Virus record (IMG/VR): IMGVR_UViG_3300021057_000002
Span: 1 to 58,767 of that record
DNA: 58,767 nucleotides
Reading direction: 5' to 3' (one strand)
Source: a virus
The stretch's first letter is position 1; each line of letters starts with the position of its first letter. Under the pieces are notes generated by a model. The model did not search any database and was not told where the DNA came from. It was given only the letters and a program-made list of their open reading frames with translations. A program made the translations under genes and the position numbers. Positions 1 through 58,767 of the stretch are shown here, in pieces.

Positions 1-111
1 GCAGTGCACTCGGCAGTGCGCTCGGCAGTGGACTCGGCAGTGCACTCGGCAGTGCGCTCGGCAGTGGACTCGGCAGTGGACTCGGCAGTGGACTCGGCAG
101 TGGACTCGGTG
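1..111 (+). repeat. 12-bp tandem repeat array (part after the junction)
   Basis: Units TCGGCAGTG-NN-C repeat head to tail and read in frame 1 as S-A-V-(H/R/D). The array continues from 58620..58767. Confidence 0.95.
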
Positions 112-429
112 CCGCCTCAAGATGCATTCCGTCAGGTCCTCAACTCGTGCGCGTACTCGTATTTCGGCGGTCAGTTCTGGCCAGCATGGTACTGGGGCGC
201 GGCGTATCAAACGTTCGCACTCGACGTGCTTCGGCTCGACATCGGCCGCGACATGGAGCTGCGCGCTCGTGCGTACGAAGCGACCGTACTGTCTGCATGT
301 TATTGGTGGCCCTCTCGTCAGTTCGTGATCGTCAGCGAGCGCCCGACCATGATCGATCCGGGTAAGCGCGCACGCTGGGAGTGGGTTTCGGACAGCGGAG
401 ACCGGTGCGTCTGGGAGGCCCCGTCGTGA
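1..429 (+). CDS. 3-prime part of the junction-spanning gene: SAVx repeats plus a W/Y-rich C-terminal domain (DUF6745-like architecture)
   Basis: Frame-1 continuation of CDS 58125..58767 (ORF track 4..429); stop TGA at 427-429. After the repeats comes GGQFWPAWYWGAAY...ACYWWPSRQFVIVSERP, which I recall from DUF6745-type proteins (not searched). Confidence 0.75.
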   Translation, partial: AVHSAVRSAVDSAVHSAVRSAVDSAVDSAVDSAVDSVPPQDAFRQVLNSCAYSYFGGQFWPAWYWGAAYQTFALDVLRLDIGRDMELRARAYEATVLSACYWWPSRQFVIVSERPTMIDPGKRARWEWVSDSGDRCVWEAPS

Positions 430-1941: not shown

Positions 1942-2336
1942 TGCTCTCTCCGAACGTCTACCTGTGTGGCGGCATCAACGGTCTGTCCGATGCCGATGCC
2001 AACGGATGGCGCGAGCTCGCGAAACGAAGATTGCCGCGAACGCTCGATCCGATGCGCCGCGATTACCGCGGACGTGAAGCCGCCAACGTCAACGAGATCG
2101 TACACGGGGACCTCGACGACATCGACCAATGCGACTTCGTGCTGGCGATGTGCAATCGACCAAGTTGGGGGACGGCGATGGAAATTTTCTACGCGCATTC
2201 GCAAGGCAAGCGCGTGTTGGCCGTTGTCGAGGAGTACGGGGAGCGACGGCAAGTCTCGCCCTGGCTTGCATACCACTCAACCGTCTATCCAACGCTGGAT
2301 GCCGCTATCGATGCGATTGAGGAACTGTGCCGGTGA
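1938..2336 (+). CDS. Nucleoside 2-deoxyribosyltransferase-like protein
   Basis: ORF track 132 aa; GTGA overlap with the upstream stop. The pattern VYLCGGINGLS...W...DP...D..CDFVLA...WGTAMEIFYAHSQGKRVLAV fits the NDT/DUF4406-type Rossmann-like signature from memory. Confidence 0.55.
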   Translation: MMLSPNVYLCGGINGLSDADANGWRELAKRRLPRTLDPMRRDYRGREAANVNEIVHGDLDDIDQCDFVLAMCNRPSWGTAMEIFYAHSQGKRVLAVVEEYGERRQVSPWLAYHSTVYPTLDAAIDAIEELCR

Positions 2337-3100: not shown

Positions 3101-3309
3101 CGCCTCGAAAGAGCAAGAGGCTGCGAACGACCACAGATCCGTTCGTTGGCGTGCTGATCATCGCGCCGAAGTCCGAACGCGATGAGTGGGCCCGCCTGGC
3201 AGCGCTATACGGCAAATCGCTCAGCGATTTCTGCCGCGCGTGGCTAAATCGCAGCTGCAAGGAAATCACTGCGGCACACATGGCGGCACTGGCGGAGGAC
3301 GACGAATGA
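3097..3309 (+). CDS. Ribbon-helix-helix (CopG/Arc-like) small DNA-binding protein
   Basis: ORF track 2962..3309 trimmed to ATG 3097 (ATGA overlap). It has a basic N-tail, a short strand VGVLIIAP, then helices EWARLAALYGKSLSDFCRAWL. Confidence 0.55.
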   Translation: MTPRKSKRLRTTTDPFVGVLIIAPKSERDEWARLAALYGKSLSDFCRAWLNRSCKEITAAHMAALAEDDE

Positions 3310-12776: not shown

Positions 12777-12958
12777 CGCTGCGACCTCCGGGCGATCGCC
12801 TTGAGGCACGTCATGCAGTCGGGAACGTCGGCGGCGATCACGGCGCCATCGGCAGGACGACGGCAGAGCGTTGCCCGGGGTGATTCCGAGTCCTCCGTGA
12901 TCGCGTGGCGCTTGTGGCCTGACCGCAGGCGTACCGTGATTGTCCGAATCGAGATCAT
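12773..12958 (-). CDS. Hypothetical small protein
   Basis: Last 61 codons of ORF 12773..13318 from ATG 12958 (ATGA overlap with the phosphoesterase stop). Contains CMTC. Confidence 0.4.
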   Translation of the reverse strand: MISIRTITVRLRSGHKRHAITEDSESPRATLCRRPADGAVIAADVPDCMTCLKAIARRSQR

Positions 12959-14313: not shown

Positions 14314-14486
14314 CGCTTGGCCACCTCCGCAGCGTGTGTGATCGCGTCGACGAACTTGGTAGCGTCGCCGATCGATCGAACTACAGCGACGACCACGACC
14401 TCGCCCGGTTGCACGGTCAGGGGTCCGTCGATGCCCAGCGCCGGCAGAACCCGCGCGGATCGCTCCTCCCAGATGCGGAACCTCAC
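14310..14486 (-). CDS. Hypothetical 58-aa protein
   Basis: Not in the ORF track (under 60 aa). I translated it by hand as VRFRIWEERSARVLPALGIDGPLTVQPGEVVVVAVVRSIGDATKFVDAITHAAEVAKR. It has GTGA overlaps at both ends. Confidence 0.35.
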   Translation of the reverse strand: MRFRIWEERSARVLPALGIDGPLTVQPGEVVVVAVVRSIGDATKFVDAITHAAEVAKR

Positions 14487-15364
14487 GGGTTACTCCACGC
14501 GAGCGCGGCAAACGTCTTGGGGCCGACGATCCGATCGGGCTTGAGCCCGTGGCAGCGCTGGAAGTCTTCGACGCAGATCGCCGTGACCTCGTCGAACAGG
14601 CCCGGCGTGCCCTCGCATTGGCCGAGACGGCGCTGGATCCACCGAACCTGGTCGCCCTTGGCTGGCTCGGAGATCGAGTGAAATCGATTGACGTCGACGG
14701 TCGAGGTGAAGCCCGGGAACCCGACCGCGTCACCCTGATACTGGTAGATCCAGTAGTTCGTCGCATCGCCCAGCGGCGGTGGAACGTTGGGGCGAACACC
14801 GACGGGCGGCATCATGCGAGCCTTGGTGCGGATCGGCCACGGCCACGGCTTGGCGAGCCACAGCGGGCTTTCGGTGAATATGGGGGCCGGAAGATCGTCG
14901 AGATCTTCTTTCCACACCCGCGCGCTCGTGTAGATACCCGGCGCGATCCCATAGTGGGCTTTGAGGACCTTCCACGCACGGTGCGTCCAATCGAGCGCCT
15001 CCTGCGCCGAGAACCCGGTGATCTGTCGGCCGCCCGGAAACTCGACATCGAGCATCGGCGGGAAGTCGCGATACCGCTCGAGCGGGACGTTTTTGCAGAA
15101 CACCTCGGCCTGTTGCTCGGGCGAAGGTGGTGGTGACCAGCCGATCTTCGGGTAGCAGAGAAACAGATAGGCCCCGTAGGTCATCCCTGCTTTGCGGATC
15201 GCGTCGCGATACTGGAGCGTTGGATCGACGTAGATCGATCCACCCTTTTGCAAGGGCCTGCCGTAGACACCGCGCACGATCACAAACGATGTCCCGACGT
15301 CCGTGGCCACGGACCAACTCGGCGGGCGGTTGCCGTCGATTGAGGCAAAGTCGATTCCGAGCAC
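14483..15364 (-). CDS. Endolysin: GH25-type muramidase plus C-terminal peptidoglycan-binding domain
   Basis: ORF 14483..15733 trimmed to GTG 15364 (TAGTG junction). LGIDFASIDGN opens the GH25-like domain. The C-terminus GDQVRWIQRRLG...GLKPDRIVGPKTFAAL fits the PG_binding_1 pattern. Confidence 0.85.
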   Translation of the reverse strand: MLGIDFASIDGNRPPSWSVATDVGTSFVIVRGVYGRPLQKGGSIYVDPTLQYRDAIRKAGMTYGAYLFLCYPKIGWSPPPSPEQQAEVFCKNVPLERYRDFPPMLDVEFPGGRQITGFSAQEALDWTHRAWKVLKAHYGIAPGIYTSARVWKEDLDDLPAPIFTESPLWLAKPWPWPIRTKARMMPPVGVRPNVPPPLGDATNYWIYQYQGDAVGFPGFTSTVDVNRFHSISEPAKGDQVRWIQRRLGQCEGTPGLFDEVTAICVEDFQRCHGLKPDRIVGPKTFAALAWSNP

Positions 15365-35622: not shown

Positions 35623-37548
35623 CTAGGCCATCGGGCCGGGCAACATGGGTGGAGCAGGAGGGCCCGGCGGCCCCATCGGCGGCGCGCCCATCGGCGGTAT
35701 CGCGTCGGGCGGCATTCCGGGCGGCATGCCAGGTGGAGCGATCGGAGGCGCCAGCGCCGCCTCGCCTGCCTTGCGCTTCTTGATCAGCTCCTCGACAAGA
35801 TCGACGTAGCGCTTGTAGCGCTCTTGGATCTCGATGGGCGCTTTCTCGTACTGGACGCGGTTGTAGTATGCCGTCGAGATCTTCAGCTCCAGTTCGAGCT
35901 CGTTGTAAGGCTCGGGCACTGGCTCGGGGAGATCCTCGTCGGCGAGCTCGTCCATCTTCCGCATCGCGTTGTGAAACGGCGCGAGTTGGATCGCGTTGGC
36001 CTGCTGGATGTCGGGCTCGTCGAACAGTGTGGCGACCAGCCACTGGGGAATCACACCGGCCTTGGTGAGTTGCTCGACGACCGAGAGCTTTCCTGCGCGC
36101 GTGTCCGGCAAGAAGTTGACGGCCTCGAGGCGGAGTCGATACTCCCCATCTTCGATGGCGACTTTGTCGTAGTCGAGCTTTTGGATCGCGTCCTGGTTGC
36201 GCCACACCGCGACCCAGGGCCGTTTTTTGCCCTTGTCCTTTGCGCGCGCGCGCGCCACGCGCTTCGAGGCATCGAGATACAGTTGGGCCGCGTCGAGCGA
36301 GTAGCGTGCGTAGTTCGCCTGCACCATCGCGAAGCGCTCGCTGTCGATGTCGTACTGAACTTCCCGGGCGACGCCCGAGGCCGACAGACCGGTCTGCGAC
36401 TGCTGGCTAGCTGCAGCCATCGAGACGCCCGATAGCTGATACATCTGCTCGATGAACAGCATCAGCATCTCGACCTGCGCGCGGTTGACCGGTGTGGGGA
36501 CCGTGAACTCCGGCGGTTGGTTGCCTTTGTACTTCATCTTGAACGGCGCCCATCCGGTGAGCATCTCCGTCGGAACGTCGGCCGCTTCGTTGACTGCGTA
36601 GTAGCCGCGACCCGTCGCAGCTAGGTTCAACTGCATGTCGCGCACGATGCAGTTCACGCGGTGCTGCAGATCGGCAATCCCCTGGATGATCCCGCGACCC
36701 CAGATTCCGCGACGGGGCTTGGTGTGGCGGAACATCGCGTAGGGCAGTCGGCACTCGTGCCACCGCTCGCTGACCAGGGTGGCGCCGTCGATACACAGGA
36801 CTCGTCGACCATCCTCGGTTTGATCGTTGGTCGGCAGGTGATGGGCCTCGAAGACGTCGGTGTAGTCCTCGAGCCCCTCGATCGTGACGTCGTCGTCGTT
36901 CTCGTCTTGCGGGCGCTTCTGCGACGCCTGCGCCTGCATGATCTGGGCTTTGAAGCTGGGAAACAACTCGGCCAGGTGCCACTTGGCGACTCGGTGCACG
37001 AGCACGCTGGTGCGCGGATTGCCTTTCTTGCACTCCCTCGGATCGAACAGCAGCTCCTCGCGGAGGATGCGCTCGGCAAACACGTCGTCATCCTTGTCGT
37101 CGATCCGCGTGATGCCCGTGCCGATGATCGAACCGTCGTGCAGCGCTTCGCGGCGGAGATCGTCGAACTCGGTCTCCAGCATCTTGCCGACGATGAATTT
37201 CCGGTACTCCTTGGCCTTGCGCTTGAGCCTCCAGTCCGAGTCGACGGTGTCGAACGCCGGCATCGGCCGCTCTTTGCTCTGCCGCGAGACGAACGTGTCG
37301 ACGATCGCCTTGGCGACGTTGAGCCGTGCGGCATTGAGACCGTGGCGATCGAGGGCGGCCAACGCGAGTTGATACGTGCGCAGCCGCGGAGATTCGTAGA
37401 TCCGCTCGAGCACGCGATCGAACTGGTGCGCCGAGCGATAGAGGCCTTGCAGGTGGCGGCCAAACGGAACGAGCCGTGCGTGCACGGGCTCTCCGACATT
37501 GGCTCTCCACCAAAAGGCGTCAGCGTGTTCGCTGGGCGTCGCGGCCAT
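35623..37548 (-). CDS. Portal protein
   Basis: ORF track 641 aa; AAGGAG upstream. Size and position fit a portal. The C-tail is Pro/Gly/Met-rich (PPGMPPGMPPDAIPPMGAPPMGPPGPP). Confidence 0.8.
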   Translation of the reverse strand: MAATPSEHADAFWWRANVGEPVHARLVPFGRHLQGLYRSAHQFDRVLERIYESPRLRTYQLALAALDRHGLNAARLNVAKAIVDTFVSRQSKERPMPAFDTVDSDWRLKRKAKEYRKFIVGKMLETEFDDLRREALHDGSIIGTGITRIDDKDDDVFAERILREELLFDPRECKKGNPRTSVLVHRVAKWHLAELFPSFKAQIMQAQASQKRPQDENDDDVTIEGLEDYTDVFEAHHLPTNDQTEDGRRVLCIDGATLVSERWHECRLPYAMFRHTKPRRGIWGRGIIQGIADLQHRVNCIVRDMQLNLAATGRGYYAVNEAADVPTEMLTGWAPFKMKYKGNQPPEFTVPTPVNRAQVEMLMLFIEQMYQLSGVSMAAASQQSQTGLSASGVAREVQYDIDSERFAMVQANYARYSLDAAQLYLDASKRVARARAKDKGKKRPWVAVWRNQDAIQKLDYDKVAIEDGEYRLRLEAVNFLPDTRAGKLSVVEQLTKAGVIPQWLVATLFDEPDIQQANAIQLAPFHNAMRKMDELADEDLPEPVPEPYNELELELKISTAYYNRVQYEKAPIEIQERYKRYVDLVEELIKKRKAGEAALAPPIAPPGMPPGMPPDAIPPMGAPPMGPPGPPAPPMLPGPMA

Positions 37549-38927: not shown

Positions 38928-39314
38928 TCACTTGAACGACTCCGCGTAATTCATGAACTCCTCCGCAAGCTCGATGTAGCGGATTCGCGATGTCTCGCGG
39001 TTTTTCGGCACGACGCCTGATTGACGGAGCACGTCGCGATACAGCCGCGCGCGCTGTAGCAACACGCGAACGCGATCCTCGTACTCGGAGACGTTCGCGA
39101 GCAAGCCATCGCAATCAAAGCGCCGGAGTTGGTGGAGCCCGACGCTGGTACCGCTCAGAACCAACTCGGTGTCGGCACGGTAGATTGCCGTCTGGCCGTG
39201 ACAGCGAACTCCGATGACGATTCGGTCGTCCCACTCGCACCGCTCAACACAAAGTACTTCAACGACTGCCGGGCAATCGTGGCACACGATCTCGGGCAGA
39301 GTGATCGCGCTCAT
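38928..39314 (-). CDS. Cys-rich hypothetical protein (TerL-portal insert)
   Basis: ORF 38928..39350 trimmed to ATG 39314 (ATGA overlap with the TerL stop). Confidence 0.5.
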   Translation of the reverse strand: MSAITLPEIVCHDCPAVVEVLCVERCEWDDRIVIGVRCHGQTAIYRADTELVLSGTSVGLHQLRRFDCDGLLANVSEYEDRVRVLLQRARLYRDVLRQSGVVPKNRETSRIRYIELAEEFMNYAESFK

Positions 39315-41200
39315 CCCCATCCGTAGCCTCCATCGCCAATCTGTTCCCAACCGTCATCGCCGTCGTCCTTGGCCTGCTTGCGCTGTTGCTCGATGTCGTC
39401 GATCCGCTGCTCGAGCTCGCGCTCCTCGGCCGCCATGGCTTCCGGCGATCCGGGCTTGGGCTTGTCCTCGGGTGCGCGATGGAGGTAGTGGCAGAGGTGA
39501 CGGAACGAATAGAGCCCTGCGTCCGAGCAGTCGTTGCCCGGAATTCGGCCGTCGGCGAGTTTGCGGTGCTTGTGCTCCTCGCGCTTCTTTCCGGGCTTCA
39601 CTGGCAAGTAGACCAGGTGGCGATGCTCGTCGAGCAGCGGCGACTCGTGCCGGATGATCACATCGCCAGTGCGCTCGACGTGGCCGCGGTAGTGGACGCG
39701 ATACTTGCGGATATCGCCCGCCATGAACTCGCGCCAGGTGTCTTTCGAGGTCTTGTCGGCATCGTCGATCGGAAGGCCCGTGCGCTCGCGCCAGCCCTGG
39801 AGATTCGCCCCTGCCTGCCCGCCCGGATCGCCGACAAACACAGCGACTGCGTCGATCGCGTCCCACAAAGCCTTGCAGTAGTCGCGTTGGTCATCCGGCA
39901 ACACGCGCGTCTGTTTCCAGCTGAACATCTCGTAGATGTCTGGGAGATCCGGTGTGAAGGCCCACACGACCACCGCGAACGGATCGGGCATGTACCCGAA
40001 GTCGGCGCCGATGGCGTAGAGCCAGTGATACGGACGTCGGCGACGGCTGCGCGGCAGATCCTCGACGGCGCGCTCGTGATCGTACCAAGGTGGATGCTCG
40101 GGGTTGATCGGGTTGGGCCGAAGCCGCTGGGGCGCAAAGATCAGCGCGTGCTCGGGCACGACGTGCACCGGGTAGACGTGGCTTGAGTCGCCCTTGACCC
40201 ACTTGGCGAACCACTCGCGCAAGAGATCCGGATCGTCCGGCTTGAGATTGTTCTCGCGGATGTGCTTGCCCGCGGTGTTCTCCCACCGGATCTCGACCGC
40301 AGCCTGCTGGGCAGTTTCGAGGTCGGCGTACGGCCCGTGCTCGATCTTCAGGTTGTCGACGACGACGATCTGACCGTCCTTGGTCACCACGTGGCCAAAG
40401 AACGGGTTATCGACGACAGCAAACGCGTGGATCTCCCAGCCGGCGAGCGGCTCCTCTTCGTTGGAGATCTCGTAGAACATGCCCGAGCAATCGCGACCGG
40501 GCGTTCCGCTGATCCAGACCTCACCGTCGAAGTCGGTGATCGAACCAAGCACGACGGCCTTGTAGAAAGCCCAGAGCTCCTTGAAGTCCTGGGCCTCGTC
40601 GACCCAGAACACGTGCTTGGCATTGCCGCGCTTCTTGCGGTGGTCGTTGACGTTATCCGCGCCGAACAACTCGATTTGCGAGTTGTTCGAGAAATTGAGC
40701 GCGTGATCGGCTTCGCGCACCTCGACCAACACGCCACCGAGATCCCAGGTGTCTACACCCGGACCTGGAACATACGTCCCGAATTGCTCGATGACGTCGA
40801 CGATGCCGGTCTGCGTATCGTTGCGCCATGCTCGTGCTCGTGCCTCCACCAGCGTCGAGTGCGCGATCGTCGAGCGAAACCCGGGCGTCTCGATCGCACG
40901 TGCCAGTAGCTCGCGGCACCCGCCGACCGTGGCACCCGCGCGGCGAGTCTTGAGCGTCACGCGGCGCTTGTGCTTGCTCGTGCAGAACGCGCCCTGCTTT
41001 GGGTGGTCGTCGAAGATCGCGCGCAACTTGACGGCCATCGCTCGCGCCTCGTCGATCTTCGCGGCTACGACCTCATCGGGTGGTCGGCGACGCGCGAGCT
41101 CGGCAAGAAACGAGGCGACCGCTTCGGGACCTGCGCGCATGACGGCTAGGACGGGCAGAACCGCAAGCGCGAGCGCCAGTGTGCTCGCGGCACGTATCAC
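39311..41200 (-). CDS. terL: Terminase large subunit
   Basis: ORF track 629 aa. It has Walker-A-like KTRRAGATVGG, Walker-B HVFWVDEAQD, and nuclease-domain acidic motifs YAIGADFGY and VFVGDPGG. The GTG 41200 start (GTGA overlap) gives an oddly hydrophobic first 20 aa; ATG 41140 is the alternative. Confidence 0.9.
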   Translation of the reverse strand: MIRAASTLALALAVLPVLAVMRAGPEAVASFLAELARRRPPDEVVAAKIDEARAMAVKLRAIFDDHPKQGAFCTSKHKRRVTLKTRRAGATVGGCRELLARAIETPGFRSTIAHSTLVEARARAWRNDTQTGIVDVIEQFGTYVPGPGVDTWDLGGVLVEVREADHALNFSNNSQIELFGADNVNDHRKKRGNAKHVFWVDEAQDFKELWAFYKAVVLGSITDFDGEVWISGTPGRDCSGMFYEISNEEEPLAGWEIHAFAVVDNPFFGHVVTKDGQIVVVDNLKIEHGPYADLETAQQAAVEIRWENTAGKHIRENNLKPDDPDLLREWFAKWVKGDSSHVYPVHVVPEHALIFAPQRLRPNPINPEHPPWYDHERAVEDLPRSRRRRPYHWLYAIGADFGYMPDPFAVVVWAFTPDLPDIYEMFSWKQTRVLPDDQRDYCKALWDAIDAVAVFVGDPGGQAGANLQGWRERTGLPIDDADKTSKDTWREFMAGDIRKYRVHYRGHVERTGDVIIRHESPLLDEHRHLVYLPVKPGKKREEHKHRKLADGRIPGNDCSDAGLYSFRHLCHYLHRAPEDKPKPGSPEAMAAEERELEQRIDDIEQQRKQAKDDGDDGWEQIGDGGYGWG

Positions 41201-50342: not shown

Positions 50343-51689
50343 CTACTCCATGCGTGTGGTTGGACCCCAGAAGTCAGCTCGCACTGCTCCGGTCCGCCCG
50401 TTGGAATTCTTGAGGACGAGCAACTGCACCATTCGTGCAAACTCGCTGTTGCTGGGGCGCGGCTCGTTCTCCTCGTAGTCGACGCCCTTTTGCGGGTTGT
50501 TCGGCGAGTAGTAGTGGCCGCGGTAGATCCCCACGACGCACTTGGACCGCTCCTCAAGGGACCCGGACTCGCGCAGATCGGCCAGCATGGGCCGCTTGTC
50601 GCCGCGCTTCTCCACGTCGCGATTGAGTTGGCTCATCACGACGTAGGCCACGTCATCGGCTTTGGCGGCGTCGGCCAGGGTCGTGATGATTCCGGTGAGA
50701 TCGTCGTGCCGGTTCTGCCGGCGCTCGCTGCGCGACGGTTTGACCAACTGCACGTAGTCGACGATCGCAACCTTCGTGTTGTTGCTCCGGCGATGCTTGC
50801 GAACCGAGCGCACGATCTCGTCGGCGGTGATTCCCGACCGTCCGTCGACCAACCAGCGCCGCCCTTGGATCTTGGGCAGCACGTTGGCGACGTCGCGCAT
50901 CTGCACGTTGCTTAGGCTGACGTTGCGCAGCGACTCGGCCGGGACTTGCGAGATCCGGCTCATCACGCGATCGCTGTAGGCCTCCTCGGTGTCCTCGAGC
51001 GAGAACAGGTGAACGCCGAATCCCGCCTCGGTGCAGGCATCAGCCGTGGCGAGACCGAGGCTCGACTTGCCCATCGCCGGACGGGCACAGACGATGCTGA
51101 CGATCTTCGGCTGCCACCCGCCGAGCAGTTGATCCAACCGAGCGATCCCGGTCGGGTAACCGGTCATCGTTCGCTCGCCGTTCGCTCGCTCGTGCGCGAT
51201 CTGCTCGAGCTGTTTCATTCGGCGCTTGACGGCTTCCGAGACCGTGGGTGTTTGCTCCGGGGTCCCGACGTCGAGACGGGTGATCGCAGCAAGGGCCATC
51301 GAGAGCAGTTCCTCGCCGCTGGTCGCGGGCGCATTGGCCACCCGTTCGAGCTCGATGCGAACCATCCGCGCGATCGCGGCGTCGCGAACCTGCTCGGCGT
51401 ACTCGACCGCGCACGATGCGTCGGGAACTGTCCGCAGGCACTCGCCGAGATACTCCTCGGCGCGATCGCGAGCCCCTTCCCCGCGGCGCTGCATCTCGGC
51501 CAGCACCGTCACGAAGTCGACCGGGCTCCCCGCGGCTTCGACGTTGCGGATCGCCTGCCACGCGTGAACGGCTGGCGGGTGCGCGAAATGATCGGCCGCG
51601 AGGAAGTCTAGTTCTGCGAGTGACTCTGCGTTGAGCAGAACGGCGCCGATGACGGCAGACTCCAGCGCCGTTGGGATCTCGACCTTCAC
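50343..51689 (-). CDS. dnaB: Replicative DNA helicase (DnaB family)
   Basis: ORF track 448 aa. It has a DnaB N-terminal domain, GYPTGIARLDQLLGG, Walker A CARPAMGKSSLGL, Walker B AIVDYVQL, and SQLNRDVEKR. Confidence 0.9.
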   Translation of the reverse strand: MKVEIPTALESAVIGAVLLNAESLAELDFLAADHFAHPPAVHAWQAIRNVEAAGSPVDFVTVLAEMQRRGEGARDRAEEYLGECLRTVPDASCAVEYAEQVRDAAIARMVRIELERVANAPATSGEELLSMALAAITRLDVGTPEQTPTVSEAVKRRMKQLEQIAHERANGERTMTGYPTGIARLDQLLGGWQPKIVSIVCARPAMGKSSLGLATADACTEAGFGVHLFSLEDTEEAYSDRVMSRISQVPAESLRNVSLSNVQMRDVANVLPKIQGRRWLVDGRSGITADEIVRSVRKHRRSNNTKVAIVDYVQLVKPSRSERRQNRHDDLTGIITTLADAAKADDVAYVVMSQLNRDVEKRGDKRPMLADLRESGSLEERSKCVVGIYRGHYYSPNNPQKGVDYEENEPRPSNSEFARMVQLLVLKNSNGRTGAVRADFWGPTTRME

Positions 51690-52558
51690 GGCAGACCTCC
51701 GTCGAGCCGCTCGATGTGGCGGATTTGCGTGGACTGCTGGGCTCCGCGGCGCGACCGGTGATCGTCAATCGCCTTGCGTAGCCAGTTGCGCCAACGCGAG
51801 TTCCAGTCTTTTGCGGTCTTCCCCCCGGCCTTTTCCCAGTCGCGCATCCGGTCGAGCTCGCGAGCTGGACTAATCCCGACGTCGATGGCTTCCTGCTCGA
51901 TGGCGCGGTTCACCTCCGAGCGCTCGGGCTTCCAATCGTCCGGGAGCCTCTGCGCTCGTGCTCGCTGTTTCCCGACGTCTCCAGCGTACCTGTCGCACTT
52001 TTCTCGAAGTTCCGCCGAATGTTTCGGGTCAGCTTTCGGCAAATCTCCCCCCGAAAGGGGGGATAAAGGGGGGATCTCTGATCTCTTCTCTTCTGATCTA
52101 ATCTGATCTAATGCGTCACGGTCCGTCACCGTGACGTTTGGTGACGTTTGTGACGTCACGCTGTCGTCACTCGTTATCGGAGTGACGTCCTGTGACGTTG
52201 GTTTTGGCGATAGACCTTCTCGCCACTTACGAGTCCGCTCGGCGCCGGTTGCAGGTCGCTTGCCCCATTCGTCCTCCCAGCCAATGATTCGCCATCCACG
52301 GCCTTCGCGAGCTATTAGCTGCGCGGATTCGGCCCTTGCGATGCCGTCGGCTGCTTCGGCCTCGGTCATCATGAGCTGGTCGGCAATGAACCACGGGTCA
52401 AGGATCCCTTCAGGCAAGTAGCCCGGGACGGGATTGGTAGGATCTGCATTGCGCCGTAACGCGAACAAAAACACTTCGCGAGCGTTCCGCCCTCCTTTGC
52501 GGATCTTTGGGTGGCTGTCGAGATTCGACGCCACTTTGCACCAGTGGCCCTGTGTCAC
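51686..52558 (-). CDS. Replication initiator / replisome organiser carrying the origin iterons
   Basis: ORF track 290 aa. It lies upstream of and overlaps dnaB. The iteron cluster sits in its central linker. The C-terminus LPDDWKP...DWNSRWRNWLRKA is a motif I recall from phage replication proteins. Confidence 0.65.
   Translation of the reverse strand: MTQGHWCKVASNLDSHPKIRKGGRNAREVFLFALRRNADPTNPVPGYLPEGILDPWFIADQLMMTEAEAADGIARAESAQLIAREGRGWRIIGWEDEWGKRPATGAERTRKWREGLSPKPTSQDVTPITSDDSVTSQTSPNVTVTDRDALDQIRSEEKRSEIPPLSPLSGGDLPKADPKHSAELREKCDRYAGDVGKQRARAQRLPDDWKPERSEVNRAIEQEAIDVGISPARELDRMRDWEKAGGKTAKDWNSRWRNWLRKAIDDHRSRRGAQQSTQIRHIERLDGGLP
52046..52198. other. Putative origin of replication (iterons inside the initiator gene)
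   Basis: Hairpin TCCCCCC-GAAA-GGGGGGA at 52046-52063 and a second GGGGGGA at 52068-52074. TCTGATCT occurs three times (52077, 52092, 52102). Nine GTGACG/CGTCAC hexamers lie in 52114-52197, many 10 bp apart. There is a local GC dip. Confidence 0.65.
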
Positions 52559-53232
52559 CGATTGGCCTCTCGAGCGCGCACAAGAACGCCGGCGACATCA
52601 GGCCGTCGGTAGTTGGGGCCCTTCTGAACTTTTCCATCCGCCCGCCGCCCACCTCCAGACTTGGTCATATTCGAGCGATGCACTTCGTCGAACACCTCGG
52701 CCAGCGGGATCCCCCACGTGATCGCCGCGCCGATGATGACGTAGGTCAGATCCGCGAGCGCATCGGCCACGCCAACCGCGGAGCCAGCGGACAGCGCCTC
52801 GCGCAACTCGTCGAGCTCTTCCTCGATCAGCGCGACCCGAAGTTGTGGCTCGCGACTGATGTCCAGCGTCGACGAGTCGACGATCCCCATCGCCGCGTGG
52901 AACGCGCGTACCTGGGCGATCGCACCAGCGAGCGGCAACTCGCCTTGAAGGCGCGCCACCTCGGCTCGTAGCCGACGAATATCGTAGAGCAGGTACCAGG
53001 TTTGATCCTGGCTCTCCTGCAGCGCCTCTACGATGAAGTCGCGCGGGTCGGTCGCGAGATCGAGTCGGCCGTGTTTTTGATGCCCGCCCTCGGCCTTGGT
53101 GACGAGTTCGAGCAAGGAATCGCGGACGTCGGGTCCGAGCGCGTAGAGGCGCCTGGCGAGATCTTGCTCGCGATCGGGCTCGCTGGCCGGTTCGGATGCA
53201 CGTTTCGTGTGCACGTCGTTTTGTCTCGACAT
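52555..53232 (-). CDS. MazG-like nucleoside triphosphate pyrophosphohydrolase
   Basis: ORF track 225 aa. The C-terminal half LIEEELDELREA...VADALADLTYVIIGAAITWGIPL...VHRSNMTK...DGKVQKGPNYRRPD matches the phage MazG-like signature from memory. Confidence 0.7.
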   Translation of the reverse strand: MSRQNDVHTKRASEPASEPDREQDLARRLYALGPDVRDSLLELVTKAEGGHQKHGRLDLATDPRDFIVEALQESQDQTWYLLYDIRRLRAEVARLQGELPLAGAIAQVRAFHAAMGIVDSSTLDISREPQLRVALIEEELDELREALSAGSAVGVADALADLTYVIIGAAITWGIPLAEVFDEVHRSNMTKSGGGRRADGKVQKGPNYRRPDVAGVLVRAREANR

Positions 53233-53860: not shown

Positions 53861-54286
53861 ATGCGATGGGTGATTGCAGCGGCGCTGGCAGTTGGCTTCT
53901 TGCCAAGCGCCGAAGCGGAGCGGATGAAATCGCCGACCGGCGAGATCAAGGACGTGCCGGCGGAGAGCGTCGAGTTCGCTCGACGGGAGGGGTGGTCCAG
54001 CGTTCCAGTAGTGCTGTTCCGCCGACCGGACGGCGATGTGATTCAGGTGTACGAAGACGACCAGGCGTACGCGCTCAATATGGGCTACTGGAAAATGACG
54101 GACGCCGAGGTCTCCGCTTTTTGGAGCAAGCGCGCGCAACGCGATGTTGCGGAGGTCGCCGCCGAAGTTGAAGCCCAAAAGGCGGCCGACCAGCGAACGC
54201 TCATCTACTGGGCGATCGGTATCGCGCTCGCAGGTGTCGCCGCCTGGATCGTGTGGCAGACGATAAACCTCCGGCGGGCGAAGTGA
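53861..54286 (+). CDS. Signal-peptide protein with a C-terminal TM anchor (superinfection-exclusion candidate)
   Basis: ORF 53582..54286 trimmed to ATG 53861. Leader MRWVIAAALAVGFLPSAEA and C-terminal TM LIYWAIGIALAGVAAWIVW. Confidence 0.55.
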   Translation: MRWVIAAALAVGFLPSAEAERMKSPTGEIKDVPAESVEFARREGWSSVPVVLFRRPDGDVIQVYEDDQAYALNMGYWKMTDAEVSAFWSKRAQRDVAEVAAEVEAQKAADQRTLIYWAIGIALAGVAAWIVWQTINLRRAK

Positions 54287-54288
54287 CG

Positions 54289-54558
54289 TCACGCGGCCAC
54301 CTCTTGTTTTTGCGGCGGCAGGTGCCAACTCGACGCCGGCACGGCGCCGTTGGTGAGCATCTCGATGCGGACCATCCAGCGTCCGCCAGGCGTTCGCTTG
54401 CCATTCTCGAACTTTCCGTACGTCGACGGATCTAGATTGAACAGCCTGGACGCCTCGACCTGGTGCATCTCGCCGCGCCACTGGCGGAGAAGCTGCGCGC
54501 CGCGGCTCGTGGCTTTCCTGCGTACAGGCACGAGTCTTTCGTTACCACCGCTCGACAA
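54289..54558 (-). CDS. Cro/YdaS-like HTH protein
   Basis: ORF track 89 aa with a TTG start (GTG 54531 is the alternative). QVEASRLFNLDPSTYGKFENGKRTP...IEMLTNGAV fits the Cro/YdaS-type HTH pattern. Confidence 0.6.
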   Translation of the reverse strand: MSSGGNERLVPVRRKATSRGAQLLRQWRGEMHQVEASRLFNLDPSTYGKFENGKRTPGGRWMVRIEMLTNGAVPASSWHLPPQKQEVAA

Positions 54559-54622
54559 ATTTGTCTAGCGGGTTGCGCTTTACTGACAGGCGTTGCGCGT
54601 TGCGCAACCATGCAAGTTGCGA
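54554..54622. promoter_or_regulatory. Divergent operator/promoter region of the immunity switch
   Basis: Palindrome GACAAATTTGTC at 54554-54565. GTTGCGC occurs at 54572, 54592 and 54599; the last forms the palindrome GTTGCGCAAC. GTTGCGA occurs at 54616. Confidence 0.5.
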
Positions 54623-55002
54623 TGGCGACAACAAATACAACCGAACAAATTCTTGTACAAAACCTCGTTCGCTTCCGTAAGGAGGCGGGCATGAGCCAAG
54701 AGCAGGCGTCCGACCTGAGTGGCATCCCGGTGGCGAACATCAGCCGCTATGAACGAGGTGAGAGCGGCGTTCCTGCCGACGTTCTGGCGCAACTCGCTCC
54801 AGTCTACGGGCACGATCCGGGCGACTTCTTCAAGAAAGATCCGCCGCCACGGAAGGTGGCCAACGTGGACATGGTCTTTCTCAAGATGCACCCGGACGTC
54901 GAGGACCTGCCCGAGGACGCCGTCAACGAGATCCTCAAACCGGTGCGGCGTGCGATCGAAAACGCCAGCACACAGATCCGCGACCTGAAGAAGCGCAAGT
55001 AG
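54610..55002 (+). CDS. XRE-family repressor (CI/ImmR-like)
   Basis: ORF 54463..55002 trimmed to ATG 54610 (or ATG 54622). LVRFRKEAGMSQEQASDLSGIPVANISRYERGESGVP is a classic XRE HTH. Confidence 0.75.
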   Translation: MQVAMATTNTTEQILVQNLVRFRKEAGMSQEQASDLSGIPVANISRYERGESGVPADVLAQLAPVYGHDPGDFFKKDPPPRKVANVDMVFLKMHPDVEDLPEDAVNEILKPVRRAIENASTQIRDLKKRK

Positions 55003-55069
55003 GCTCCGCGGCTTCGCTCCGGATCCGGATTAACCCAAGAGATCAGACTGGTTAGATAAGCTCTTATGC

Positions 55070-55567
55070 ATGCAAGCTTCCCTAGCCGACGTAGCGAGGC
55101 GACTGCGAAGCCAGGCTGCCCTGACTGAGCCGCCCTACTCAACACACGCAATCATCGAACACGCGTTCCCCGATGCGCTGGTCACCGGCGCGGACCTACC
55201 AATGCAGGTACACGAGGCCGTGTCGCGAACCGAGACGGGCGTCGTCCTGATCTATCGACGTTCGCTGACCATCCCAGAACAGCGGGTGGCGATCGCGCAT
55301 GGCGTTGGTCACCTCGTCTTCGACATGCACCAGCACGTCACTGGGTTCGTCCGCGAGGCGTTCCGAGAGCGCCGCGCTGATGCGGTGGCGGCCGAGCTCT
55401 TGGTGCCGCTCGACGACCTAGCGCCGCGCCTCCGATGCCTGCCCTCGCGCGTTGCCCAGGAGCAGCAGATCTACCTCGACCACGTGGATGAGCTAGCCGG
55501 GCTGTTCGCGGTGCCAGCACGGCTGATTCGCGACAGAATTCGCCTCCTTATAACTTCGGCGCATTAA
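55070..55567 (+). CDS. ImmA/IrrE-family protein with a degenerate metal motif (HGVGH in place of HExxH)
   Basis: ORF track 165 aa directly downstream of the XRE repressor. VAIAHGVGHLVFD and ADAVAAELLVPLDDL match the family layout, except that the catalytic Glu is Gly. Confidence 0.65.
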   Translation: MQASLADVARRLRSQAALTEPPYSTHAIIEHAFPDALVTGADLPMQVHEAVSRTETGVVLIYRRSLTIPEQRVAIAHGVGHLVFDMHQHVTGFVREAFRERRADAVAAELLVPLDDLAPRLRCLPSRVAQEQQIYLDHVDELAGLFAVPARLIRDRIRLLITSAH

Positions 55568-55571
55568 TTAC

Positions 55572-55600
55572 TAGACAAAACTGTCGAGCGCCCTTAAAAC
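55572..55600 (+). promoter_or_regulatory. Candidate sigma70-like promoter of the rightward early operon
   Basis: TAGACA, a 17-nt spacer, then TAAAAC, in an AT-rich gap. The -10 element ends 6 nt before ATG 55607, which suggests a leaderless or near-leaderless transcript. Confidence 0.3.
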
Positions 55601-55606
55601 GGGTGC

Positions 55607-55837
55607 ATGACGATTCGCGAGCACGCACGAATCACCACCACGAAGTTCCAGGCGATCGCAGCCCCCAAGGGCCATCGGAGCTGCCAGGTCGCCACCATCC
55701 GGCCGATCGCCGTCCTCCCCGAGTACACGGTCGCGCAGTACGCCTGCGAGTGCGGGTTCCCGGCCGCGAGCCGGGTGCAACTGACGCAGCACCACGAGAT
55801 CGTCCGACTGATCACGGGCCTCGCGGAGGCAGCGTAG
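55607..55837 (+). CDS. Hypothetical protein
   Basis: ORF track 76 aa; first gene after the AT-rich gap. Confidence 0.55.
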   Translation: MTIREHARITTTKFQAIAAPKGHRSCQVATIRPIAVLPEYTVAQYACECGFPAASRVQLTQHHEIVRLITGLAEAA

Positions 55838-56185
55838 ATGCCGACCCTCAAGGTGTGGATCACCAAGAATCCGACGGCGCTCCAGGATCTCGCCGAGTAC
55901 CTGGCGGCCGAGGGCTCGGATCACTGGGCAGTCAGCGACATCGACGTCCGTGATCTGGCGCGCGCCTACCTCCAGTGCATGGACGAGGCCCAGCACGAGC
56001 GCGAGCGACGGATCCGGGCCGAGCAGGATCTTCAGGCGATGGTGCTACAGGCGGCGTTCAATCGGGCAGCCGCGTGCTGCGACGAGCTCGCCTCGGTCAT
56101 GGGGCACACCGACCTGGTCGACGACGACGCGACCGGACCGACTCCGTCCAGCATCCTCGACCGACTGCGCGCGGAGGGCCTCTAG
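55838..56185 (+). CDS. Hypothetical protein
   Basis: ORF track 115 aa; TAGATG junction. Confidence 0.6.
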   Translation: MPTLKVWITKNPTALQDLAEYLAAEGSDHWAVSDIDVRDLARAYLQCMDEAQHERERRIRAEQDLQAMVLQAAFNRAAACCDELASVMGHTDLVDDDATGPTPSSILDRLRAEGL

Positions 56186-56437
56186 ATGCGCACCGTCTCC
56201 CAAGCCGTTCACGACGCAGTGCTGGTCCAGAAGGATCTCGAGGATCGCCCGGCACTGACGAGTGAGGACTGGTCGCTCTTGGGCGATCGCTGCATCCACG
56301 ACGCAATTCAGCCCTGTACAAGCGAGGAGCGCTACGCCGACTCCATCCGGCTCGCCGCCCTCTGCTACCGGAACGCGATCGACGGCTCGCTGGGACTCCG
56401 CAACATCGAATCCACACTCAAGAGCGAGGGGCTGTAG
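56186..56437 (+). CDS. Hypothetical protein
   Basis: ORF track 83 aa; TAGATG junction. Confidence 0.55.
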   Translation: MRTVSQAVHDAVLVQKDLEDRPALTSEDWSLLGDRCIHDAIQPCTSEERYADSIRLAALCYRNAIDGSLGLRNIESTLKSEGL

Positions 56438-56440
56438 CCA

Positions 56441-56830
56441 ATGCAGAAACTCACTGCAGAGACGATTACGGATGCCGACTTGCGCGCGATGATCGATGCG
56501 GCAACGGTTCGGCATCCACCCGATGACGGCGAGCGCGACGCAGCATGGGTTTGCTCGCGATGCGGCGAGCACTGCGGGTACCGCCGGAAGCGTCCACTCT
56601 ACGGCTATGACATGGCAGACGCGCACTGCTTTACCGAGAACTGTGCGGGAGGCTCGTTCTGTGCGCGAGAGGCGTTCTCGATGCGCACGCGCGACGGACG
56701 CCGGTCCGACGAAGATCGCCTGAACCGCAACGCAGCCGTGCAACTGGCAACTCGCGCGCTTGCCGGGGAGCCGTTCGCACGTTCGCTCTGTGCCGAGATC
56801 CTCAATGCCCGCGCCGAAGGGAGCCGCTAG
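56441..56830 (+). CDS. Cys-rich hypothetical protein
   Basis: ORF track 129 aa with CSRCGEHC...C...C. Confidence 0.55.
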   Translation: MQKLTAETITDADLRAMIDAATVRHPPDDGERDAAWVCSRCGEHCGYRRKRPLYGYDMADAHCFTENCAGGSFCAREAFSMRTRDGRRSDEDRLNRNAAVQLATRALAGEPFARSLCAEILNARAEGSR

Positions 56831-56832
56831 CC

Positions 56833-57192
56833 ATGGTCACCGCCCTCAAGCCCCAGCCGGCGATCCGCTTCGAGTATCAGCGCCACCTCTCGCTCTCCGA
56901 GAACGTCTGGCTGCACCGCTGGACCTGCGGATCCTGCGGCCGAGTGTCGGTCTACGTCTCCTCGCGTGAGGCGGCGGAGCGGACCGCGCGGCTTCACGAG
57001 CGGTACTGCGAGCGCCCGTTCGATCGTCCGCCGCCGAAGATCTCCCCGGTTGCCAGTAAGCCGCGCTGCCGGTTCTGCGGACTTCGCCAGGTGGGCCACT
57101 ACGGGGAGGCGTTTACGACAACGTGTGGACACAGCGAGTGCCTGTGCAGCGAGCACATGCACGAGCACATGCACGCAGGAGATCAGCGATGA
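56833..57192 (+). CDS. Cys/His-rich hypothetical protein
   Basis: ORF track 119 aa with CGSC...CRFC...CGHSECLC and HMHEHMH. Confidence 0.55.
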   Translation: MVTALKPQPAIRFEYQRHLSLSENVWLHRWTCGSCGRVSVYVSSREAAERTARLHERYCERPFDRPPPKISPVASKPRCRFCGLRQVGHYGEAFTTTCGHSECLCSEHMHEHMHAGDQR

Positions 57193-57533
57193 GCAACAAA
57201 GACATCAGTATCAACGAGGCGATTGCCAACCTCGCCGAGGCGCTGAGTGTATCCAATGTCAAAGACCTCCCCGGCTGCTGGGAGTGTAAGGTTGACGATC
57301 GCTGGTGGTTCGCGATCAACGCGCACACCACGCCGAAGGCCGTCAAGCTGTCGCCGAGCGGCGTTGCGCACAAGGTCGACCCGTTCCACTGCTACGTGGA
57401 GTTCAACGGCTGGCCTGCGGGCGTCTTCCATCTCGCGGGCGGCGGCGAATTCGCACAGGGCACCGAGGCGAACGAGGACGCGTTCATTGATGCGCTCGTG
57501 GCCGCGGCCGAACGAGCACGGAGAAAATCGTGA
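57189..57533 (+). CDS. Hypothetical protein
   Basis: ORF 57123..57533 trimmed to ATG 57189 (ATGA overlap). Confidence 0.55.
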   Translation: MSNKDISINEAIANLAEALSVSNVKDLPGCWECKVDDRWWFAINAHTTPKAVKLSPSGVAHKVDPFHCYVEFNGWPAGVFHLAGGGEFAQGTEANEDAFIDALVAAAERARRKS

Positions 57534-57727
57534 ACGTCGACGACATCATGCGCATCGTCTACGCGCCCGGCTTCGATCCATGGGATCTCGACGCGCCGAT
57601 GTGCCGCGCGCTGGTCGACGAGATCATCCGGCTGCAAGGCGCCTTGGAGCAAGAGCGGGCGCTCAACGCGATGCCGGTGGAGAGCAGGGTGTCGCTCGAC
57701 ATCTTGCGCAGCGCAGGACTCCTCTAG
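57530..57727 (+). CDS. Hypothetical small protein
   Basis: ORF track 65 aa; GTGA overlap. Confidence 0.5.
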   Translation: MNVDDIMRIVYAPGFDPWDLDAPMCRALVDEIIRLQGALEQERALNAMPVESRVSLDILRSAGLL

Positions 57728-57729
57728 TC

Positions 57730-58128
57730 ATGACTACCAAACAACGACTGGCCCACTTGGAGCGCGAGCTCAAGCTCGCACAGGAAGAGGCCCAGCGGCT
57801 GCGCGCAGCGCTCGACCAAGAGGTTCAACGCAGAAAGCGCGACGCGGAGACGTATCACGCGGCCGCGCAGCACGAGCGCAAGACCTACCGCAAGGCTCAG
57901 GAGAGACTCGTCGATCAGGCGAGGACTCTGCGCAAGATCATCGACGGACTGTTGGACCGGCTGGCGCCCTCCTCGCAGGAGAGCCCCTGGACTGTGCACG
58001 CAACCGCAGACGGTCCATGGCTCGCGCAGTACGCAGAGGAGTTCGGGCGCGACATCGCAGCGCAACGTCTGGCACGCGAGGCTTCGCAGACTGCGGCAAA
58101 GGCGTCAGCCAAGGAGAAAGCGCCTTGA
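57730..58128 (+). CDS. Coiled-coil hypothetical protein
   Basis: ORF 57247..58128 trimmed to ATG 57730. Confidence 0.55.
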   Translation: MTTKQRLAHLERELKLAQEEAQRLRAALDQEVQRRKRDAETYHAAAQHERKTYRKAQERLVDQARTLRKIIDGLLDRLAPSSQESPWTVHATADGPWLAQYAEEFGRDIAAQRLAREASQTAAKASAKEKAP

Positions 58129-58767
58129 TCGCGCTGGCTCGCTCCCTCGATCTCGCCGACCTGCAGCGGCAAGCGGCCGACGACGACTCCGCACGTCTCG
58201 TCCTCGCCGATATGCATGAGGAGCGCGACGAGCACGATGTCGCGGCGATCCTCCGCTCCGAGCTCGGCCACGGCTACGCACAACAGTACGTCCGCGACGA
58301 TGTCGCCCGACTGTGGCGTGACGAGTTGCCGACTCGCACGGGCAAGCTCCGCAAGCGCGTCGAGAAAATGACCAAGGCCGAAGAGGCGCGGATGTCCGAG
58401 TGGCGAGACAAGTGGATCGCGCACGCGCTCACCACGGGCAGAGCGGATCGTCCGTTGTTCGAGGCCGCAGTCTGCTCGATCTATCGCCTGCTGCACAAAG
58501 ACGGGAATGTCGACACACAAACGCCGCGCGTGATCTGGACGCCGTGTCCGCTGGTGCCAGTGTTCGCAGGGCCGATCGCGTCGCTGTTGATCGCGCAGGG
58601 CAATGTCGAGCGCGCCAAGCACTCGGCAGTGCACTCGGCAGTGCGCTCGGCAGTGGGCTCGGCAGTGGGCTCGGCAGTGCGCTCGGCAGTGGACTCGGCA
58701 GTGCACTCGGCAGTGCACTCGGCAGTGCACTCGGCAGTGCGCTCGGCAGTGGACTCGGCAGTGCACT
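58125..58767 (+). CDS. 5-prime part of the junction-spanning gene: TIGR02996-like N-terminus, DUF6745-like body, start of the SAVx repeats
   Basis: Not in the ORF track because it has no stop inside the window. AAGGAG at 58111-58116 precedes TTG 58125, which overlaps the upstream stop as TTGA. DDSARLVLADMHEERDEHDVAAILR resembles the TIGR02996 repeat-companion motif. The gene continues in frame into 1..429. Confidence 0.7.
   Translation, partial: MIALARSLDLADLQRQAADDDSARLVLADMHEERDEHDVAAILRSELGHGYAQQYVRDDVARLWRDELPTRTGKLRKRVEKMTKAEEARMSEWRDKWIAHALTTGRADRPLFEAAVCSIYRLLHKDGNVDTQTPRVIWTPCPLVPVFAGPIASLLIAQGNVERAKHSAVHSAVRSAVGSAVGSAVRSAVDSAVHSAVHSAVHSAVRSAVDSAVH
58620..58767 (+). repeat. 12-bp tandem repeat array (part before the junction)
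   Basis: Twelve head-to-tail units TCGGCAGTG-NN-C, read as S-A-V-(H/R/G/D). The last 46 nt are identical to nt 1-46. Confidence 0.95.

Follow-up and report, generated by a model that had tools for sequence, protein, structure and literature searches.

The viral sequence IMGVR_UViG_3300021057_000002 (58,767 nt; "the window" below means this whole stretch) carries, across its two ends, a gene in which an N-terminal and a C-terminal lobe (N-lobe and C-lobe) flank a tandem array of 12-nt units that encode tetrapeptides of the form x-S-A-V, x being the variable residue. The gene is genuine: a cytoplasmic early gene, carried by a temperate soil phage, and a derived member of the DUF6745 family (PHROG 31813), whose common plan is a conserved N-lobe, a tetrapeptide array, and a C-lobe. 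The protein encoded in the window is a short form that has gained a TIGR02996-like tip and lost about the last two thirds of DUF6745, a part that includes the invariant GRLH...DGWG...HG motif. The array appears to change in frame by gaining and losing whole 12-nt units, one at a time or several together (e.g., 36 nt), and is predicted to form an antiparallel α-helical hairpin stalk between the two lobes.

The gene and its join across the window ends

An AAGGAG Shine-Dalgarno sequence can be read 8 nt 5' of the TTG codon at 58125 with which the gene begins. The stop codon of the upstream 132-aa gene (57730..58128) overlaps this start as TTGA, and the start is further backed by a 59-aa homologue (P0238) that begins MIALAL.... 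Joining 58125..58721 to 1..429 yields a single 1026-nt open frame of 341 aa, with 17 xSAV units and a degenerate DSV; it includes both the N-terminal motif and the Trp/Tyr-rich end quoted in the original prediction, which had been made from the sequence alone. The three-part gene proposed there is borne out by this open frame and by its end-to-end alignment with contiguous homologues. The conserved N-lobe follows the consensus RKRVxKMT...W..KWI..L.T..ADRP.FEAAV..YR...P...AGPIA (alignment A1), and the C-lobe carries the motifs GGQFW...LDVLRLDIGR...CYWWP...VSERP followed by a tail, RWEW...W.V.P, before its TGA stop at 427-429.

Both the end (58619..58767) and the beginning (1..109) of the window lie in a single tandem array of 12-nt period, as delineated by Tandem Repeats Finder (TRF); the left part of the array runs off the window end, and the right part begins at window base 1. 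Within these units, 10 of the 12 nucleotide positions are invariant, wobble positions included, and all 13 of the 13 mismatches affect the first two bases of the x codon (CAC, CGC, GGC, and GAC, encoding H, R, G, and D). The right part additionally shows a 36-nt super-period with 95% matches (TRF), which points to block duplications. The last 46 nt of the window are identical to its first 46 nt, the sole other exact overlap of the ends being 10 nt long. Forming the joined frame requires removal of this overlap (58722..58767 = 1..46), which is itself array sequence; a direct end-to-end join without its removal results in a frameshift.

The same phage is publicly available as contig k141_697991 (58,855 bp) of ENA assembly ERZ27252493, which is identical to the window outside the array. 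The comparison covered 6038 nt on one flank, without a mismatch, and 6941 nt on the opposite flank, where 3 mismatches occur, each within the first 31 nt of the array. This contig likewise stops within the array at both ends, with no terminal overlap; 17 units (HHRGGRDHHHRDH-HRDH) are resolved at one terminus and 13 (RGHRGHHRDDDD) at the opposite one, in an order that disagrees with our joined model. The simplest reading of the 46-nt overlap is a chance match between parts of an array of low diversity; it is no reliable genome terminus or circular junction. Because the overlap is array sequence and the ENA units differ, a copy number of 17 is not established: the true array has 18 units or more, and no fewer than 30 by the ENA assembly. 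The approximately 17 units originally predicted therefore hold for the joined model, not as a count for the genome. Many homologues hold both halves of the gene contiguously, each of P0003 and P0004 doing so within one protein, and hence the gene itself is real; only the copy number and the order of units are artefact-prone. With a 12-nt unit, any whole number of units keeps the frame. On/off phase variation was rejected on this ground, every copy number being in frame.

Domain membership, two architectures, and a partner gene

The membership of the window protein in DUF6745 is carried by its relatives. On its own, the protein scores 17.1 bits against PF20530 (E 0.0034), below the 27-bit gathering threshold, with the match spanning aa 290-323 (window 271-372) and profile positions 31-64 of 206. 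A word-indexed phmmer search returned 260 relatives at E ≤ 1e-3, the majority with precomputed PF20530 matches, and nearly all homologues at E values of 1e-30 to 1e-81 have precomputed PF20530 matches. An exhaustive search of 1.84 billion cluster representatives returned 1024 at E ≤ 1e-3 and 70 at E ≤ 1e-30, and PF20530 is matched by 16 of the 20 closest relatives, the best at 1.3e-45. Alignment A1 with DUF6745 relatives covers the GGQFW...WWP...SERP region. A complete domain of approximately 206 residues is not present in the window protein: profile positions ~65-206, with the GRLH / DGWG / HG..VP / N.E.RR region and its invariant His and Gly motifs, are absent, and the protein ends 27 residues past SERP, where a short tail found throughout its subfamily stands instead. 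The predicted DUF6745 body thus stands as significant homology to proteins that pass PF20530, with the C-terminal two thirds missing and the single-sequence score below threshold.

For the N-terminus, hmmscan places aa 16-46 on positions 11-41 of the 45 in TIGR02996 (rpt_mate_G_obs) at 16.9 bits (E 0.004), below the NCBIfam cut-off of 29.05 bits, and none of the 19 other subfamily members matches this model at E ≤ 0.01. A profile built from 10 N-termini and searched against 5.8 billion sequences retrieved three proteins named "TIGR02996 family" by JGI (E 5.4e-5, 1.9e-4, and 5.8e-4), with which the N-termini have in common the motif (A/P)RLVLADWYEE.G....A...R; the TIGR02996-like N-terminus of the original prediction is backed by this search. 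Both resemblances are real, although neither meets its curated cut-off and DUF6745 is present to one third. The TIGR02996 domain usually precedes repeats, according to its NCBIfam description. TIGR02996 proteins of Planctomycetes and Myxococcota share with the window protein the N-terminal motif D..ARLVLADWYEE.G....A...R ahead of repeats. In classic members, the downstream repeats are leucine-rich or otherwise long, whereas here they are tetrapeptides in a phage context, and the score is below cut-off. Weak matches to DUF637, DUF826, MSCRAMM, GvpQ, perilipin, and tape-measure models were treated as repeat-composition artefacts and dropped.

Alignment of the family separates two architectures. 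In the full-length form, the N-lobe and the array are followed by a complete DUF6745, in which GRLH, DGWG..HG..VP, and N.E.RR motifs are conserved. The short form, to which the window protein belongs, consists of the TIGR02996-like extension, a linker (RLWRDELP..RKRV), the N-lobe, the array, DUF6745 as far as SERP, and a tail of ~25 residues. Relative to full-length DUF6745 proteins, the window protein shares the N-lobe, the array, and the first third of DUF6745 as well as the early-operon position; it lacks the remainder of the domain and carries the extra TIGR02996-like segment.

Clustering of the open reading frames (ORFs) around family loci revealed one recurrent neighbor, a small His-rich protein of ~100-150 aa with the consensus ..RQGDV..LAEGEATGHAH...HEEH...G.Y.V..Q.EY.P...V.D, encoded on the same strand immediately upstream or downstream of the DUF6745 gene. 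It matches phrog_27831, a PHROG of unknown function, and has no Pfam match and no PDB sequence match. This partner lies beside all 17 of the distinct full-length genes with at least 1.5 kb of flank (28 of 31 overall) and beside none of the short-form genes (0/5 with at least 1.5 kb of flank; 0/6 overall); its hidden Markov model (HMM) has no match anywhere in the window at E ≤ 10. Partner genes were seen at L002, L003, L013, L014, L020, L036, L072, L132, and other loci, and at L142 4097-4492. Since the C-terminal module and the partner are lost together, we suggest that the two work together. The short form amounts to a clean domain swap, in which the C-terminal module and its partner are out and the TIGR02996-like tip is in, and this swap provides a first functional handle on the TIGR02996 "repeat-companion" domain.

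The original prediction named no known phage context for this architecture. That statement does not survive, since in the data searched the family is mostly phage-borne. Every context of a relative that we examined is phage-like, with genes nearby for cro/cI-type helix-turn-helix (HTH) pairs, ERF, PDDEXK, AAA_24, YqaJ, DnaB, RepA, Gam, and integrase. P0005 adjoins PDDEXK, AAA_24, and integrase genes downstream of an HTH pair; P0008, from a 53-kb contig assigned to a Kofleriaceae metagenome-assembled genome, is preceded by an HTH pair and followed by DnaB; P0062 follows HNH, PDDEXK, and ERF genes; the contig of P0065 also has ERF, YqaJ, and a portal gene; P0007 adjoins integrase, amidase, and baseplate genes; and P0033 lies among RNR, ligase, and dCMP deaminase genes. 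The short-form gene P0012 is located on contigs of ~127 kb with almost no Pfam matches, which may represent a large uncharacterised soil phage. These contigs (L138 and L139) come from two sources, JGI 3300014969 and ENA ERZ27252491, the latter a sister sample of the ENA assembly that contains the phage of the window.

A curated example is the Mycobacterium abscessus prophage prophiGD102-1, of which gp38 is a family member (L142 4485-5930) and gp37 the partner (E 2.8e-19 to the partner HMM), the pair following Gam-like, ERF, and RepA-like genes. The array of gp38 is of the form (x-x-Q-L)n, its two variable positions being occupied by W/R/G and G/D; hence, what the family keeps is a period of four with one hydrophobic residue, and not SAV itself. 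The BFVD database holds a DUF6745 protein of Microcystis phage Ma-LMM01, and further copies occur on large actinobacterial and cyanobacterial plasmids (Nocardia, Streptomyces, Mycolicibacterium, and Nostoc). All of these deposited members are annotated as hypothetical, and the apparent lack of a phage context reflects missing annotation, not biology.

Locus scans returned one locus for P0062 as the query and none for P0019. A Pfam scan of ten long members found longer arrays only, with no extra domains; one of the ten is a fungal cell-wall protein, a false positive brought in by its repeat. In P0094 (429 aa), the gene call joins a family member to a C5 cytosine DNA methyltransferase (PF00145) just past the SERP-equivalent region; this may be a real fusion or a read-through of the gene call. 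A DNA methylase gene is also found near P0062 in L013.

Evolution, predicted structure, and possible role of the array

Across 237 family proteins, the number of units ranges from 3 to 67 (median 21), and V occupies the fourth position in 90% of units. Of 32 intact arrays, 23 are made up of units that match the consensus of their array at 90% identity or better; including partial ones, 59 arrays are homogeneous in this sense. Over the 59 arrays, extra base states number 158 for the pair of x-codon sites, 19 for the four wobble positions, and 41 for the remaining six, so that x-codon sites are ~17-fold more variable per site than wobble sites. At the second base of x, 1244 of 1248 units have G or A and the other 4 have T, never C; the first base is G, C, or T, rarely A, and the third is fixed as C/T. 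This gives a repertoire of D, G, R, Y, and H in which Cys is under-represented. Between the arrays of different phages, wobble bases vary freely while S-A-V is kept (GTGGACTCGGCG, GTTCGTTCTGCC, and GTTGATTCAGCC), and the constraint therefore acts on the peptide. Identity at the DNA level within an array reflects recent turnover of units.

Signs of such turnover also appear between close relatives. Arrays differ even where the 240-nt flanks of two phages are 98.8-100% identical: a 3-unit indel separates L137 from L124, and with identical flanks the array of L004 differs from that of L080, and the array of L085 from those of L082, L109, and L136. All of these array comparisons rest on short-read assemblies. 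The slippage-prone locus proposed earlier is supported indirectly, in that two assemblies of one phage disagree only in the array, near-identical phages differ there, and units show no synonymous divergence. Variable protein length, also proposed, is seen as length and sequence variation in these assemblies, without on/off switching.

An AlphaFold2 model of the window protein, built from a 118-sequence alignment, has a mean predicted local distance difference test (pLDDT) score of 82 and a predicted template modeling (pTM) score of 0.68. The two lobes score 86-98 (in the C-lobe, over about aa 251-340), and the array is modeled as two long helices, at residues 143-196 and 204-234. The full-length protein P0062 is modeled with a pLDDT of 93 and a pTM of 0.87, and its array again forms a helical hairpin, here at 83-94. 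The high pTM suggests that the two lobes may sit together as one head, in which case the array would be a stalk of variable length. By reasoning from helical geometry and not as a read-out of the model, the variable x residue would be placed on the surface of the stalk. Opposite charges between successive units (i, i+4) exceed those in shuffled sequences (z = 4.6 over 157 arrays), which fits helix-stabilising salt bridges. Foldseek searches of BFVD matched only a fragment from an uncultured phage (5.9e-6) and the Ma-LMM01 protein (1.7e-3).

We propose that the stalk might act as a fast-evolving interaction surface or spacer in an early-expressed phage protein. Its target could be host defence, a rival phage, or the nearby recombination and replication machinery, and its use counter-defence, exclusion, or control of recombination or replication; in the short form, the TIGR02996-like tip would take the place of the partner-dependent C-terminal module. 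Taken as a whole, with the structural and evolutionary description and the conflict-interface function judged together, we regard this explanation as an even call. The structural and evolutionary description is in our view quite probable, whereas a conflict-interface function of the stalk is a tentative suggestion that we rate well short of even.

Several results weigh against this proposal. For the window protein, the hairpin is predicted with low confidence (pLDDT 50-70). Neither the model of this protein nor that of P0062 matched a PDB chain below E 1 in Foldseek, and PDB sequence and profile searches gave repeat-composition matches only (Pfs230 and DevS). The basic N-half and acidic C-half of the window array prompted the idea of charge complementarity across the hairpin, which proved absent (z -1.3 to +1.8 over 157 arrays). 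The excess of x-codon variation could stem from selection for helix solubility or salt bridges instead of target binding, and differences between arrays could in part be short-read mis-assembly, although mis-assembly cannot explain the absence of wobble variation. No informative domain fusion emerged from the precomputed Pfam matches of homologues or the Pfam scan of ten long members; no function for any family member was found in the literature searched; and there was no anti-defence homology in what was scanned, which did not include the PADLOC defence models.

Alternatively, the array could be a selfish minisatellite that stays in frame and is tolerated as a neutral spacer, located in a surface loop of a protein whose head does the work, for example as an accessory to the adjacent recombination and replication genes; variation in length and in x would then be meaningless. 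The unit number, which ranges widely with no apparent optimum, would fit, as would the 5-7 units of the short-form proteins P0003, P0004, and P0014, the different array sequences of different lineages (xSAV, xASV, and xxQL), and the frequent adjacency to ERF, PDDEXK, Gam, or RepA genes. Against this, virtually all members, which span a very broad phylogenetic range, have an array with strict period 4 and one hydrophobic position, V in most units, and the x set is narrow, with its near-universal purine at the second base. Neutral drift would not yield the much denser variation at two nucleotides than at wobble positions. We consider a neutral spacer unlikely, if worth keeping in view.

A stronger version of the interaction-surface proposal, which we regard as improbable, holds that the DUF6745 stalk is a phage diversification device independent of reverse transcriptase, an in-frame minisatellite shaped by unit turnover and selection. 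One exposed residue per helical turn would be kept hypervariable with a "binding" alphabet of D/G/R/Y/H, and the full-length form would signal via the His-rich phrog_27831 protein and the short form via the TIGR02996-like tip. If true, such a device would give early intracellular proteins rapidly re-tunable recognition of targets in host defence or rival phages.

The repeat could also be a DNA-level element, such as origin iterons or protein-binding sites within a gene, with the peptide as a by-product. The origin of phage lambda lies inside gene O, where iterons encode the linker between two domains. An array of units perfectly identical at 10 of 12 nt, wobble included, in a gene of the early replication and recombination region would recall that arrangement. 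The feature conserved across phages is nevertheless the S-A-V peptide and not the DNA; an array of 15-60 copies with a 12-bp period does not resemble iterons; the array shows neither an AT-rich flank nor a skew feature; and a better origin or operator candidate lies at 52054-52156, beside the DnaB operon. These points make a DNA-level role very improbable. To an assembly artefact, in which a false circular join creates a chimeric ORF, we give slightly less credence still: both window ends lie in the array, their overlap is array sequence, and the ENA assembly disagrees on the units, but contiguous homologues hold both halves in the same order on single contigs, 28 IMG/VR contigs among the matches listed have intact genes, and any whole number of 12-nt units stays in frame. 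Least probable of all is targeted mutagenesis by a diversity-generating retroelement (DGR). DGRs produce variation in the first two bases of AAY codons, and here too variation is limited to the first two bases of one codon whose third base is fixed as C/T; yet TRF found no second (template) copy of the array in the window, no reverse transcriptase family matched among the 20 larger window ORFs scanned against PHROGs, the bias of the second base is unlike adenine-directed random substitution, and the variation lies among tandem units and not between a variable and a template repeat.

Compared with known systems, the likeness to DGR variable proteins lies in the first-two-base codon variation and a D/G/R/Y/H-type repertoire at positions that would be exposed; the absence of a reverse transcriptase or template in our scans, the purine-only second base, and the spread of sites over tandem units set the array apart. 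Borg amino-acid tandem repeats, an example of in-frame perfect tandem repeats in mobile elements, and simple-sequence contingency loci offer a further comparison. Shared with the array are nucleotide-identical in-frame units, a unit length divisible by three, and an apparently rapid turnover between close relatives. In contrast to both, the array here is family-defining, predicted to be helical and not disordered, and has two hypervariable nucleotides per unit; unlike contingency loci, it cannot frameshift the gene off.

The domain families involved are already catalogued, and the gene is not a new kind of object. The literature searched contained neither the short TIGR02996-tipped architecture nor the partner of the full-length form, and neither the repeat pattern with two hypervariable nucleotides nor the phage-wide distribution or the breaking of assemblies described below. 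The family is a large, structurally orphan group of phage genes (~1000 clusters at 50% identity, a model at pLDDT 93, no PDB relative) that combines a conserved two-gene module with DNA-perfect repeats carrying two hypervariable bases. The gp37/gp38 pair of prophiGD102-1, a curated prophage of a cultivable host, makes it testable.

Array-broken contigs and the genomic setting

The array breaks contigs well beyond the window. A degenerate DNA pattern for five S-A-V-x units matched at least 117 IMG/VR stretches, and an HMM from full-length relatives, run on the ORFs of these loci, confirmed family genes on at least 56 IMG/VR contigs. Among the matches listed, 28 contigs have an intact gene, 11 have the gene split over both ends like the window, and 17 more are cut at one end within the array, so that 28 of the 56 confirmed genes are cut at a contig end inside the array. 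The terminal overlaps of the 11 split contigs (none in 6; 8, 11, 24, 36, and 124 nt in the other 5) have values set by the array and not by the assembler. In GTDB species representatives, two of four matches are likewise cut by a contig end at the array. Array repeats thus end short-read contigs systematically, and short overlaps can be mistaken for direct terminal repeats; care is needed with completeness and gene calls and with circularisation at array-bearing ends, as the window exemplifies.

Four of the loci (L009, L050, L090, and L123) belong to one 150-kb viral contig, IMGVR_UViG_3300013121_000024, with several separate array stretches. Many short ORF pieces on it match only the repeat part of the HMM, and one gene is intact (L090 5861-7138); the pieces may be frameshifted or degenerate arrays, or several copies.

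The features of the window are collected in Table 1. Its GC content is 64%. Small genes on the + strand run from the HTH/M78 switch into the array gene, and no + strand terminator-like site was found in 54000-58767; the array gene therefore lies in an early rightward operon, in agreement with the position first assigned to it. It had also been called the last early gene before a recombination module, a designation that rests on the gene for a 342-aa protein immediately downstream (913-1941, +) and the PDDEXK nuclease gene. The 342-aa protein matches only phrog_10048, a PHROG of unknown function, with no Pfam match. As read from these genes, a recombination module downstream is plausible and partly shown, in that the nuclease is present. 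The 342-aa protein has a zinc-ribbon-like insert (CPECG...C..KKGGC).

Table 1. Positions of the array gene, its parts, and other features in the window
Feature	Position	Strand	Evidence or remark
Shine-Dalgarno AAGGAG	58111..58116	+	sequence
5' part of coding sequence: TTG start, N-terminal extension, N-lobe, left array part	58125..58767	+	
TIGR02996-like helical segment, aa 16-46, ...DDDSARLVLADMHEERDEHDVAAILR	58170..58262	+	hmmscan E 0.004, 16.9 bits, below cut-off; profile search
Conserved N-lobe, aa ~60-165	58302..58618	+	alignment A1; AlphaFold pLDDT >90 over most
Left array part, x series H H R G G R D H H H R D H	58619..58767	+	TRF, 12.4 copies, 92% matches
46-nt stretch identical to window 1..46	58722..58767	.	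wholly inside array
Right array part, x series H R D H R D D D D	1..109	+	TRF, 9.1 copies
C-lobe: N-terminal third of DUF6745 and short subfamily-specific tail	110..429	+	Pfam, alignment A1, AlphaFold
PD-(D/E)XK nuclease	3186-4454	+	
Tyrosine integrase	9720-11159	+	
SbcD-like exonuclease	12955-14799	-	
Portal	35623-37548	-	
Large terminase	39311-41200	-	
DnaB helicase	50343-51689	-	
HTH gene and M78/IrrE-type peptidase gene (55070-55567)	upstream of array gene		

Searches for the phage elsewhere gave no match among GenBank phages by tblastn (window protein) or megablast (12 kb of the window), no match in IMG/VR for exact flank patterns of the window, and no record in exact-protein look-ups of window 429-920 and 1-429.

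Three further genes of the window relate to nucleotide metabolism. A nucleoside 2-deoxyribosyltransferase gene (window ~1941-2336, +; PF05014 on the ENA gene call) is followed directly by a gene resembling DpdA/queuine tRNA-ribosyltransferase (2327-3100, +; phrog_887, E 1.6e-59), and a MazG/PRA-PH-type pyrophosphohydrolase gene lies at 52555-53232 (-). The three genes, all located in early regions, suggest in combination that the phage may modify its DNA bases, possibly in the 7-deazaguanine style. The origin or operator candidate at 52054-52156, preferred above to the 12-nt array, is a cluster of short tandem repeats (AAAGGGGGGAT x2, TCTGATCTAA x2, and GTGACGTTTG x2.7) that lies just upstream of the - strand operon containing DnaB.

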